41,979 bases of DNA, taken from positions 1 to 41,979 of IMG/VR virus record IMGVR_UViG_3300023301_000028; one strand, 5' to 3'. Under the pieces are notes generated by a model that was not told the origin of the DNA, ran no database searches, and saw only the letters and a list, made by a program, of their open reading frames with translations. The stretch comes from a virus (lineage: Duplodnaviria > Caudoviricetes). The position numbers and the translations under genes were made by a program. Below are positions 3,335 through 9,355 of the stretch, one piece after another. Each line of letters starts with the position of its first letter. The stretch's first letter is position 1.

Positions 3335-3374
3335 TTATATCTCCTGACCGGATACCGCCGGACTTCGGATTTGT

Positions 3375-4166
3375 TTAGGCTGCTGCCTTCTCTGCTTGCT
3401 TCTTCCAGTATGCCAATTGCTTGAGCATATCTGCATTCTTGGCTTGGAGCTGATCTCTTGACGACTTCAATGCGTGGATCTCTGCCTCTTGTGTTTTGAT
3501 CGTGGCACGCAATTCTGCCATAGTATCTTCGATGCTGTGTTTTTCTTCTTGAGGGATGTCCATAACCTTCAAGGCTAGGCGATCCTTTAATGCGGCCAGC
3601 TCTTCTACCAGCTCGACGTTGGCGTGCGCTAGCTCTTTCATTGCCTCATCTTCTTGAGGAGGCGCTACAACGGGAGCCTTGCCAACTGGCTTGATGGTTT
3701 TCTCTTGGCCATGCTTATTAATGTATTTCTTCTCGGTAACGTCAAGATCTAGTACCTTGCGAACCCGACCCACGAATGCCGAAGAAACTTTGCACTTGCG
3801 AGCAATAGCAGCGTCTGACCATTCTGCCCACTCCATATCATTGAAGAGTGTCATCACGGCTTTACGCTTGTCTTCGTTCGAACGGCGTAGGCCATGATCG
3901 TCATTGACCCCGACTGCGTACAGCACCGCGTCACGCAAAGTTCCATTCATAACTTTGACGTCTACATCCTTAGCTCCGGCTTTTTTATACGCAAAGTAAC
4001 GATGGTATCCATCTACCAAGTAGTTCTGTATCCCGTCAAAGAAAACCGTGAGCGCCGGAAACTTATCGCCCTCTATCATGGCTTCCGCATACTCAGCGAC
4101 CGTCTCCTGTGAAATCTCTGTGCGAGACTGGGTTTGTTTGTTGAGTGTAATTTCTGTGATTAACAT
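3375..4166 (-). CDS. ParB/Srx-fold protein with HTH and C-terminal coiled coil
   Basis: LVDGYHRYFA ParB motif; WSDAAIARKCKVSSAFVGRVR helix-turn-helix; heptad-rich C-terminus. Confidence 0.85.
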   Translation of the reverse strand: MLITEITLNKQTQSRTEISQETVAEYAEAMIEGDKFPALTVFFDGIQNYLVDGYHRYFAYKKAGAKDVDVKVMNGTLRDAVLYAVGVNDDHGLRRSNEDKRKAVMTLFNDMEWAEWSDAAIARKCKVSSAFVGRVRKVLDLDVTEKKYINKHGQEKTIKPVGKAPVVAPPQEDEAMKELAHANVELVEELAALKDRLALKVMDIPQEEKHSIEDTMAELRATIKTQEAEIHALKSSRDQLQAKNADMLKQLAYWKKQAEKAAA

Positions 4167-4231
4167 TGTGATCCTTTAGACGTGCGTAAGCCGCTGCGAG
4201 GGCAGTCGGCCGTGTGTTTGTGTGTGTTCAT
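4160..4231 (-). CDS. putative 23-aa leader peptide MNTHKHTADCPRSGLRTSKGSQC
   Basis: AAGGGGA SD just upstream; ORF overlaps the ParB start (ATG 4166) and stops at 4160. Confidence 0.45.
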   Translation of the reverse strand: MNTHKHTADCPRSGLRTSKGSQC

Positions 4232-4272
4232 TCTATCCCCTTGTAAACACGATCCCTCAACCGTGTCTAGTA

Positions 4273-4301
4273 ATTCTATACTTGTAATCTAACGTTTGCA
4301 A
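4273..4301 (-). promoter_or_regulatory. sigma70-type promoter for the ParB-helicase-primase operon
   Basis: TTGCAA (4301-4296), 17 nt, TAGAAT (4278-4273). Confidence 0.7.
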
Positions 4302-4344
4302 TACTGTTAATTTGTACAGGAAATTTCTAAATGCGCAAAAAAAT

Positions 4345-4616
4345 TCGCCCCATAGGCTATCCAAGGGTGAGAGCAGTGGCAGTGTGCAGTTACGCAGTAT
4401 GCCCTTAGCCCTCCCGCCTGACCCAAATCATCCTCAAAATTCCTTAGACGATTCCAGTCCTACCTGAGTTAATGTTCGTCGATCCGTGTAAGTTCACCAT
4501 AGCCACAGATCTTGTGTAGTCGCCATCCAACGCTACGAGGCTTATTAGTGAGGGGTATCACCTGCCTATGTTTCCTTCCACGCAGCCCATTTAGGCTCTA
4601 TCTATCGTGTGGAGAA
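4345..4616 (-). ncRNA. candidate ~270-nt multibranch structured RNA (family unknown to me)
   Basis: Closing helix CAUAGGC (4570-4564)/GCCUAUG (4357-4351) plus GGUGA/UCACC; internal hairpins GAUCUGUG/CACGGAUC, AAUCGUCU/GGAUGAUU and AGCCU/GGGCU, whose mismatches become G-U pairs on the minus strand; no credible ORF. Confidence 0.55.
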
Positions 4617-4626
4617 CGGGAGAAAT

Positions 4627-4742
4627 AAAAAAACCGCAATAGTCAATGCCCCCTTGGAACGCAGTCTTTGTGGGACTGAACCCCTTGCGGGGTGGGACAC
4701 TGATTATTGCGGTCTTCTCTCATCGGCGTTCCAATTCCGACA
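4627..4742 (-). ncRNA. C4/CI-like antisense RNA with upstream target hairpin and intrinsic terminator
   Basis: 20-bp outer stem 4713-4694/4652-4633 (19 pairs, 2 G-U) followed by U7; inner ACCCC-GCAA-GGGGU GNRA hairpin and CAGUC/GACUG hairpin; junction GCGUUCCAA (4662-4654) complementary to UUGGAACGC (4734-4726) in the upstream hairpin. Confidence 0.72.
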
Positions 4743-4752
4743 ATATGTAGTA

Positions 4753-4781
4753 ATTGTATACCGCATAAAACAAAAAGTAAA
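4753..4781 (-). promoter_or_regulatory. sigma70-type promoter for the C4-like RNA
   Basis: TTTACT (4781-4776), 17 nt, TACAAT (4758-4753); predicted +1 near 4746, just before the first hairpin. Confidence 0.6.
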
Positions 4782-4907
4782 GTGTGGGCTCGATAAAGCA
4801 CGATTTCCATTAGACAACAAAACATTGGGCGAAGAGTGCAGGTGCGTGCCAGAACCTTTGTTGCAACGCCCTTTGTAACATTGGGCGGCTAAGACCCAAC
4901 CCCACAT
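4780..4907 (-). ncRNA. candidate ~125-nt structured sRNA
   Basis: 5' end GUGGGGUUGG pairs with 3' end UCGAGCCCAC, followed by a U-rich tail; CGCCC/GGGCG and GGCACG/CGUGCU helices; 11-nt direct repeat; extended -10 immediately upstream. Confidence 0.42.
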
Positions 4908-4911
4908 TTAT

Positions 4912-4920
4912 ACAATATCA
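4912..4920 (-). promoter_or_regulatory. extended -10 element
   Basis: TG-A-TATTGT; weak -35 TGGTCA at 4941-4936. Confidence 0.4.
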
Positions 4921-5015
4921 CAAAGAAGAATCCCCTGACCAGATAGGCGAGGGGATTCTAGGGGACGCTCAGGAGATATTACCTGTTGGAGAAACAGACC
5001 AAGGAGGGACTTGGT
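4920..5015 (-). ncRNA. candidate ~95-nt sRNA with anti-Shine-Dalgarno loops
   Basis: ACCAAG-UCCCUC-CUUGGU and CUGUU-UCUCC-AACAG hairpins, linker GUAAUAUCUCCUGAGCGUCCCCU, then the terminator; own strong promoter whose predicted +1 coincides with the first base of hairpin 1. Confidence 0.68.
4921..4959 (-). terminator. intrinsic terminator
   Basis: Perfect 10-bp stem AGAATCCCCT/AGGGGATTCT (4927-4936/4950-4959), 13-nt loop, followed by UCUUUG on the minus strand. Confidence 0.65.
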
Positions 5016-5021
5016 GTAAAC

Positions 5022-5050
5022 ACTATACCAATAAACCTTTATCGCTGCAA
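5022..5050 (-). promoter_or_regulatory. strong sigma70-type promoter for the anti-SD sRNA
   Basis: TTGCAG (5050-5045), 17 nt, TATAGT (5027-5022), with extended TG at 5030-5029. Confidence 0.72.
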
Positions 5051-5494
5051 TAGCCACAGCGCCATAAGTAAGGCATCCGCTCTTCCGTGGTGTTTCACTA
5101 ACTTCAGCGGCGCTTCCGGCCACAGTCCCCTAGCTAACTCAAGACTTGCGCTTTTATCCGTTCCGATAAGCCCGTGGTGCTTCTTCCACACCTGAGGACG
5201 TACCATTGAGACACTCGCCCCCGTGAGCGCTGCCACGGCCTCTATAGATCCGGCCGCCCTCATAAACTTCCCCGACGAAGCGATCCCCTGCCCCGGACGA
5301 ACCCAGACATCCTCTATGGCAATCTTTGCTGGGTCACGCAATAACTTGTACAAGTCTATGGCCAGAATCCTACCGTCAAGCACAGGTAGATCCCCGCACC
5401 CTACGAATGATCCGTCCTCGCCTATAGCGCCCCAAGCCCCAGAAGAGCTCCCCGGATCAATACCGTAAATTATTTTGCATGACATACTTGACAT
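5039..5494 (-). CDS. RuvC-like Holliday junction resolvase
   Basis: IYGIDPG, IAIEDV, PQVWKK and GRADALLMA acidic RNase H-fold motifs; start may be 5485. Confidence 0.82.
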   Translation of the reverse strand: MSSMSCKIIYGIDPGSSSGAWGAIGEDGSFVGCGDLPVLDGRILAIDLYKLLRDPAKIAIEDVWVRPGQGIASSGKFMRAAGSIEAVAALTGASVSMVRPQVWKKHHGLIGTDKSASLELARGLWPEAPLKLVKHHGRADALLMALWLLQR

Positions 5495-5517
5495 CCTTGC
5501 AACACATGAATTATGAT
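5488..5517 (+). promoter_or_regulatory. sigma70-type promoter for the rightward recombination operon
   Basis: TTGACA (5488-5493), 18 nt, TATGAT (5512-5517). Confidence 0.75.
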
Positions 5518-5571
5518 GTACCTAATCTGTTTGGAGACAGGTGTTGTACGAGGATAACACAGGAGAGCATT

Positions 5572-5727
5572 ATGGACTACAGCGAAATAATTATTCGCAT
5601 GACTCAGCGTCTCAAGCAATACCAAGACGCGATTAACAAGCAAGACATTCCCGCAGCCAAGACGCTTGCAGCAGTCATTTTTGAACTTTCTGACGAGCTT
5701 TTGTTTACCACGCGGAGTATGAAATGA
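5572..5727 (+). CDS. small hypothetical protein (51 aa, MDYSEII...)
   Basis: AGGAGA SD at 5561 supports ATG 5572 rather than the track start at 5479. Confidence 0.7.
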   Translation: MDYSEIIIRMTQRLKQYQDAINKQDIPAAKTLAAVIFELSDELLFTTRSMK

Positions 5728-9164: not shown

Positions 9165-9355
9165 AAGATGAAGATATGAGGGACTTTTTTGCGGCGTTTG
9201 CCATGCTTGGAGGGGTTGTTAGGCATGGTGCAATGCACAAGTTTGTGGCCAACGATGCTTATGCTATGGCAGATGAGATGATGTTGGCACGAGTGCAGCA
9301 CGAAGAAGTGGGGATTACCGCAGTTAAACCTAAACGAAAGAGAGAAACAGAATGA
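9161..9355 (+). CDS. hypothetical phage protein
   Basis: RDFFAAFAM...AYAMADEMMLAR, a recurrent small phage protein pattern; GTGA overlap. Confidence 0.75.
   Translation: MKDEDMRDFFAAFAMLGGVVRHGAMHKFVANDAYAMADEMMLARVQHEEVGITAVKPKRKRETE

Follow-up and report, generated by a model that had tools for sequence, protein, structure and literature searches.

A conserved phage small RNA gene whose anti-Shine-Dalgarno loops co-vary with orthologous early ribosome-binding sites

What does the short non-coding stretch behind the Holliday-junction resolvase gene of this phage encode, and which messages could its product reach? The window, by which we mean the whole 41,979-nt stretch of DNA analysed, is part of a tailed-phage genome, and because complete relatives measure 60-65 kb, this 42-kb record is probably partial. 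A rightward operon begins at 5572 and encodes r1, r2, an exonuclease, Erf and SSB. It diverges from a leftward block that comprises the resolvase gene, three non-coding units, a ParB-like gene, helicase and primase; the genes for structure and lysis, also leftward, occupy 41820 to 9794. The first of the non-coding units is a small-RNA gene with a definable anatomy, fold and strand, a conserved promoter element and a terminator, and it co-varies with orthologous early gene starts. As read from its sequence, this conserved phage gene carries four C/U-rich modules of anti-Shine-Dalgarno (anti-SD) type (Table 1).

Table 1. Positions in the window of the small RNA gene, its parts, its neighbours and its candidate targets
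Feature	Position	Strand	Basis or remark
Helicase gene	3334-1856	-	PHROG 16
Candidate target: helicase RBS UCAGGAGAUAU	3337..3347	-	11-nt complement to AUAUCUCCUGA
Candidate target: uORF SD AGGGGA (4241-4236) and 23-codon uORF (4231-4160)	4160..4241	-	UCCCCU complement
Candidate target: 5' hairpin of replication leader, GAGG(GA) loop	4244..4269	-	fold
Third non-coding unit	4625-4750	-	behind sigma-70-like promoter 4781-4753
Second conserved structured RNA, closed by GUGGG/CCCAC	4784-4905	-	directly after small-RNA terminator
Small RNA, about 95 nt	5015 to about 4921	-	covariance model R1
Intrinsic-terminator-like hairpin with U-rich tail	4921..4959	-	fold z -4.91
Module 4, single-stranded UCCCCU; UUUCCUC in B type	4960..4965	-	sequence
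Module 3, UCUCCU core; contains AUAUCUCCUGA at 4979-4969	4966..4982	-	sequence
Hairpin P2, CUGUU-UCUCC-AACAG; loop UCUCC is module 2	4983..4997	-	alignment
Hairpin P1, ACCAAG-UCCCUC-CUUGGU; loop UCCCUC is module 1	4998..5015	-	alignment
Extended -10, TG-n-TATAGT (TGGTATAGT)	5022..5030	-	predicted start at A 5015
-35-like hexamer TTGCAG, weak	5045..5050	-	within last resolvase codons; 3/6 to consensus
Holliday-junction resolvase gene	5039..5494	-	PHROG 1770, E 4e-27; directly upstream of RNA
Hairpin A of rightward leader, UUGGAGA at 5531-5537	5525..5542	+	UCUCCAA site of the preliminary description
Candidate target: r1 RBS CAGGAGA	5560..5566	+	r1 at 5572-5727, first gene of rightward early operon
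Further candidate target: complement before 45-codon ORF at 9352	9342..9351	+	10 nt; -11.4 kcal/mol

The preliminary description of this locus had given the sequence and coordinates of the RNA, and both proved correct when the window was re-read. It had also credited the gene with a strong promoter and terminator. The promoter is an extended -10 element with a weak -35 hexamer; a consensus promoter and terminator scan of the window listed neither the small-RNA promoter nor its terminator. The 101-nt stretch folds at -31.7 kcal/mol (z -3.83), below every one of 200 shuffles, a signal that comes mostly from the terminator, with the 5' 56 nt alone at z -1.91. Folded singly, the window RNA prefers a CAGG/CCUG pairing over P2, and the alignment favours P2. 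In the alignment of 13 rows, pairing holds for 95.8% of 260 cells, against 28-56% in slid controls, and both partners change in 8 of 20 pairs, with compensatory changes in all three helices. P1 is paired in 100% of cells, with C-G replaced by U-A in 3 of 13 rows, P2 is 96.9% paired and changes on both sides at 3 of its 5 pairs, and the terminator does so at 4 of 10. The P2 stem occurs as CUGUU/AACAG, CUACG/CGUAG and CUUCC/GGAAG, while the loops remain pyrimidine anti-SD sequences. Module 3 forms a third hairpin in several relatives and is open or weakly paired in the window RNA. The terminator loop of B-type loci (L073, L074, L082, L236) reads UCCUCC, a possible fifth anti-SD module. Coding readings were rejected on both strands: the start codon of a plus-strand TTG ORF at 4986-5195 is lost to TCG in L002, and 1-2-nt indels cross a minus-strand ORF at 4908-5123 in relatives.

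This phage sRNA family is real and uncatalogued. Loci were gathered by protein scans, pattern scans and a covariance model, R1, trained on 13 sequences, and 17 distinct loci in ParB-helicase phages score 33.8-96.9 bits with it (L065, L067, L106 and L236 were found by R1 or a sequence profile). Copies of the window sequence (L001, L057, L063, L147, L153) were counted once, and weak model matches in L077/G180 (20-21 bits), L138 and L261 were excluded from all counts. All 18 loci listed (17 distinct) have the element TGnTAnnnT 5-9 nt ahead of the RNA, and each of seven loci viewed (L003, L004, L155, L010, L065, L073, L074) has a terminator of its own just upstream; the RNA is thus an independent minus-strand unit. 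The earlier proposal of a minus-strand sRNA with several anti-SD modules is upheld by its conservation across 17 loci, the compensatory changes and the kept extended -10. On the ParB tree, A-type carriers form one starred clade that also includes two short or partial non-carriers, and L010, L106 and the two B-type branches fall outside this clade, in the deep part of the tree where branching order is unresolved. Nine relatives that are at least 91% complete gave no R1 match better than E 0.5, and a heuristic scan of the same nine found no convincing unit. P1-only patterns retrieved 36 loci, five of them family members and the rest mostly chance; a metagenome pattern retrieved 13, of which 11 were members and 2 chance; and a B-type pattern gave no new member among the matches listed (120 loci). 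At the same genomic position, L077 (1622-1702) and L138 (3297-3370) hold weak, divergent promoter-hairpin-terminator units with C-rich loops, possibly distant members of the family.

Rfam gave no match at gathering thresholds and none on the RNA at E 10 over 4100-5700, and in 8 further loci the sole exception was an E 4.3 overlap with the terminator. A blastn search of 4150-5600 against 50,697 GenBank phages found no match, and protein searches returned distant records only. The listed sequencing runs included no holder of the RNA, which carries no weight for or against. A cellular homologue was rejected: among 151 Burkholderiaceae-family genomes a single one gave an R1 match, which covers the terminator only. 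The RNA may be among the 8,495 unnamed candidates of Fremin et al. 2023 (PMC10690425), in whose searched supplement files our motif and contig terms were not found; the passages covered of Weinberg et al. 2017 (PMC5737381) hold nothing on it.

If the loops are anti-SD in type, which ribosome-binding sites (RBSs) do they fit? Four complements to the phage's own leaders had been proposed, all of which lie at the positions given for them, and they are unequal in weight. The helicase RBS is the only 11-nt complement of the RNA 5' part in the window, and the exact match stands, but it is not supported as a co-evolved pair. The complement measures 4-8 nt in the 13 other loci, and L002 keeps a 25-nt helicase start region identical to the window while its module 3 has changed (6 nt). 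The proposed check for compensatory change between sRNA and helicase RBS came out negative in the closest clade (p 0.41), where r1 pairing also lacks co-variation (p 0.31). Module 3 and the own helicase RBS could form a 13-bp helix with one G-U in L073 and L082. When SD-like cores were fixed and flanks shuffled, a match of at least 11 nt to one of 59 start regions arose in 5.7% of 20,000 shuffles (3.8% with early genes only), so we regard the helicase match as suggestive, not decisive. The match of loop 1 to GAGGGA at 4258-4253 recurs as a 5-6-nt complement in 9 of 9 loci having the hairpin, but because that loop is invariant it is uninformative on co-variation. The UCUCCAA match to hairpin A is true of the window and unconserved: a UUGGAGA hairpin loop occurs in 2 of 12 leaders, with 7 nt matched in the window alone. 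A full duplex between P2 and hairpin A was rejected, the 7-nt loop match being missing in 11 of 12 leaders. In the uORF match, GGGGA faces UCCCC in 9 of 9 loci, with extensions to 7-9 nt in L151 and L149; within the clade this pairing gives a nominal p of 0.0008 over only about three independent groups. The best predicted site in the window is the further complement at 9342..9351 (Table 1).

A better conserved candidate target on the rightward side than hairpin A is the r1 RBS, which was absent from the preliminary description. A complement of 6-9 nt precedes the r1 orthologue (MDYS...) in all 16 loci, and its site reads CAGGAGA, GGAGAAACA, CAAGGGG or ACGGAGG by lineage, each matched by the lineage's own RNA. 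We used an exact permutation over orthologous starts (7 lineages, 5040 pairings, 32 choices of member), in which p-values are nominal because the lineages are related. Cognate RNA fit gave p 0.0002-0.011 for r1, an RBS picked after data inspection, 0.0012-0.015 for the ParB-controlling start (that of the uORF, or of ParB), 0.004-0.26 for helicase, and 0.0002-0.002 for the three together. The control starts gave p 0.37-0.77 (exonuclease, no signal) and 0.045-0.59 (ParB itself). When the lineages were grouped coarsely into four, the cognate set came first among 24 for all 16 choices. A longest-match score gave weaker values in the same order (r1 0.001-0.08, helicase 0.02-0.23). Module 4 switches in step with its counterpart, from UCCCC opposite the uORF GGGGA to UUUCCUC opposite a ParB RBS, GAGGAAA, in 3 of 3 L073-type loci. 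These comparisons use gene starts from our own ORF caller and an energy model that is our own simplification, combining unbroken helices with ViennaRNA opening energies and differing from IntaRNA; many RNA-target duplexes are only 5-7 bp. Co-variation of the RNA with the phage's own early leaders, as first suggested, is thus seen for the r1 and uORF/ParB-controlling starts, where the seed co-varies with the target RBS, and is weak for helicase.

We also compared early and late starts across genomes, the labels resting on position and homology, not expression. Predicted pairing of the own RNA is stronger at early than at late starts in the window (19 vs 40 genes, p 0.023), G001 (52 vs 46, p 1.8e-5), G003 (41 vs 44, p 7.6e-4) and G004 (48 vs 26, p 3.5e-5); the difference is absent in G002 (p 0.47), and G005 has 3 late genes only. 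This asymmetry alone was rejected as evidence, as the nine near-complete relatives without a detectable RNA (G006-G014) also carry GGAGA at 105 of 410 early and 29 of 403 late starts (summed), so that SD asymmetry does not require the RNA. Early GGAGA sites in those relatives may have another reader; a search of three of these genomes for RegB gave nothing above cut-off. Specific to the B type is a switch of site. The lineage with CCUCCGU loops (B type) uses ACGGAGG in early genes only: the motif stands at 5/41, 6/48 and 6/40 early starts (17/129 summed), and at 2/410 in the nine relatives without the RNA. GGAGG as such occurs at 10/41, 13/48 and 12/40 early and 0/44, 0/26 and 0/3 late B-type starts (summed, 35/129 and 0/73), and at 3/159 early starts of A-type phages (summed). 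In G178, a sister of L074, 8 of 10 ACGGAGG sites precede an ATG, and one B-type RBS complements its own RNA exactly over 12 nt. The absence of any shift with RNA type at late starts (one-sided p 0.64-0.94) speaks against a mere host dialect, which would predict one. The suggested comparison of start regions with a shuffled background, made here by shuffling the flanks, was modestly positive in G001 (p 0.003-0.06) and the window (0.02-0.5), and not significant in G002 and three B genomes. Own-type advantage over all early genes is weak (p 0.0095-0.26).

We consider it probable that the RNA pairs with the RBSs of the phage's own early genes and lowers early translation. Host sigma-70 polymerase would transcribe it from infection onward, and the RNA would accumulate. 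Its loops could then block 30S binding by covering the r1 RBS at the head of the recombination operon, the RBS of the uORF coupled to the ParB-like gene at the head of the replication operon, and the RBSs of helicase and a set of small early genes. Most late genes, with AAGGA/AGGAG-type sites, would pair poorly and escape, and the result would be a delayed early shut-off, with some host mRNAs with GGAGA sites presumably affected as well. Expression, pairing in vivo, blocked initiation and timing are all steps that we infer from sequence. The uORF is present in 9 of 9 A-type loci that have the replication leader, with an unconserved peptide, and it ends at or next to the ParB-like start or RBS, its stop overlapping the ParB-like start in the window. 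The uORF and the ParB-like gene are likely translationally coupled, so covering the uORF SD would lower ParB synthesis.

The closest functional parallel is T4 RegB, which, in the part of the source used here, cuts GGAG in the SD of early mRNAs, inactivating these and sparing late mRNAs, and needs S1 (PMC3014915). RegB is a protein nuclease, whereas the phage reader here would be an RNA; PF10715 was over cut-off in 0 of 5 genomes. We put at a little under even the chance that the locus is an RNA counterpart of RegB, in which a lytic phage has a private early RBS code and a single multi-loop RNA as its reader. Each loop would be assigned to the head of one early operon, and code and loops would switch jointly (GGAGA/UCUCC, AAGGGG/CCCCUU, ACGGAGG/CCUCCGU). 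If true, the phage would time its early-to-late transition without a protein, and the shut-off of early translation is largely open for phages without known repressors or RegB-like nucleases. In a largely open-access literature we found no paper on a phage sRNA repressing its own early gene set via several anti-SD loops. The natural swap pairs (A, L010-type, B) make the idea of early repression amenable to reporter tests. It also bears on the question of a reader for the start-associated sequences of cluster K mycobacteriophages, which the parts of PMC3203893 drawn on here describe as phage-specific extended RBSs of many genes, with bases unexplained by 16S pairing and a single reverse copy in four genomes. 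Those authors left an RNA or protein reader open (PMC3203893, same parts). That work shows no RNA and concerns other hosts and another sequence; in the phages studied here, an RNA gene with a multi-loop fold co-varies with the sites.

Cellular RNAs offer structural rather than functional parallels. RNAIII/RsaE and 6C are cellular, Gram-positive sRNAs with C-rich loops, in which UCCC-type loops pair with the SD. Such loops are common to them and the phage RNA, and the empty Rfam scans are the whole of the sequence comparison. A loose likeness to cuckoo/CcsR RNAs had been suggested, and it holds for the plan but not for loop motif, sizes or an Rfam match. The alphaproteobacterial cuckoo/CcsR (RSs0680) has hairpins of 24-50 nt and loops of 9-27 nt with the motif CCUCCUCCC, as given in the portion of PMC4615179 considered. 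Both have two to four adjacent small hairpins (here two conserved and a third in several members), variable stems and module number, and anti-SD-like loops, as far as that portion extends. The phage RNA differs in being phage-encoded, in its 14-18-nt hairpins (P1 18 nt, P2 15 nt) and 4-8-nt loops, and in loops that vary by module and lineage (UCCCUC, UCUCC, CCUCC, UCCUC) instead of repeating CCUCCUCCC in each hairpin. The betaproteobacterial toxic or double-hairpin sRNAs of RF02278 are cellular, with host metabolic genes as predicted targets (sections of PMC5688073 and PMC4603805). On those sections, they are likewise short RNAs with CU-rich unpaired stretches complementary to RBSs, a terminator of their own and a UCUCC core. 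In the six examples compared, a single-stranded GUCUCCUCC at the 5' end is followed by one hairpin and then the terminator, an arrangement not seen in the phage RNA, and RF02278 has no match on the latter while matching in 4 of 5 betaproteobacterial genomes. The phage RNA thus appears to be a variant of the C-rich anti-SD kind, notable for the evidence of co-evolution with its own early RBSs.

Other functions would also suit an RNA with such loops. It could serve host take-over as a broad silencer of GGAG-type host mRNAs, its matches to phage leaders a by-product of common SD vocabulary, and cellular double-hairpin RNAs do hit many mRNAs likewise (part of PMC5688073). GGAGA is the common strong SD (31 of 228) among starts drawn from five Burkholderiaceae-family genomes as a stand-in for the real host, and A-type P1 contains CCUCCUU although A-type phages hardly use GGAGG. 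Predicted energies of -6 kcal/mol or lower are reached on 25 and 16 of the 228 stand-in starts by A-type RNAs, the window RNA accounting for the 25. Against this, B-type RNAs reach that value on only 3 and 8 of 228, compared with 8/41 and 8/40 of their own early starts (6/19 and 8/52 for the A-type RNAs on theirs), and own early starts are predicted to be better bound than the stand-in starts (p 0.021 to 2e-8). The SD switch is limited to early genes, and orthologous leaders co-vary with the RNA, so we find host take-over unlikely. An immunity or exclusion RNA, keeping early genes off in a carrier state or blocking related superinfecting phages, has its model in the P1 C4 and P4 CI RNAs. The position between divergent early operons, the constitutive-looking promoter and the adjoining c4-like fold agree with it, as do the predicted pairing of A-type RNAs with early GGAGA sites of RNA-less relatives and the absence of an HTH_3 repressor match in the complete carrier G001 (over cut-off in 1 of 5 genomes, G003). 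The idea that the RNA replaces a repressor was not supported. A search of 5 complete relatives, two carriers among them, found tyrosine integrase in none, and for this reason we favour a lytic-cycle timer over immunity. There is no Rfam C4 match, and none of the 9 bacterial-genome loci scanned with R1 (out of 78) is a carrier. A plasmid-like prophage state is possible; immunity as a whole we hold to be quite doubtful.

Two further readings do without RBS pairing. In one, the RNA belongs to the end of the resolvase (or upstream) transcript, as terminator region or 3' UTR, with C-rich hairpins that merely stabilise the mRNA; in its favour, the window has no terminator between the resolvase gene and the RNA. 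It is very unlikely nonetheless, given the separate upstream terminators and universal extended -10 described above, an upstream gene that varies between types, and stems that change while loops remain anti-SD. Decoy RNAs typically have repeated similar loops, and this RNA has them, so its pyrimidine loops might be a binding motif for S1, Hfq or a phage protein and no pairing seed at all. Such a decoy leaves the lineage-wise match to orthologous RBSs unexplained, and we give it hardly any credence, slightly less than the 3' UTR.

The surroundings of the early-repressor candidate contain further elements. The structured RNA directly after its terminator has a -10-like element of its own and the motifs GUUAGCG, UGGCA.GCAC and GCUUUAU; both partners change in 11 of 22 consensus pairs (5 sequences), and it has no Rfam match. 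The third unit, which may resemble c4-type antisense RNAs, has a hairpin loop with TTGGAACG and a long stem (arms 4630-4652 and 4694-4716) that holds the complement CGTTCCAA; related loops occur in L004, L010 and L065. Upstream of the RNA, L003 (2050-2110) and L004 (4200-4280) carry an extra mini-unit with the loop AUCUCCU and its own terminator, and short units of this sort in other carriers lack the loop. The Betaproteobacteria-1 RNA (RF02932) occurs on the plus strand in L074 (1347-1472, 92 bits) and L236 (3756-3881, 87 bits), 300-400 nt downstream of the B-type RNAs, where A-type phages have unnamed RNAs; these two B-type loci provide the only pointer to the host group. The rightward promoter region at 5488-5517 (plus strand, TTGACATCCTTGCAACACATGAATTATGATG) is almost invariant in A-type phages though it overlaps the resolvase start, and it is possibly an operator.
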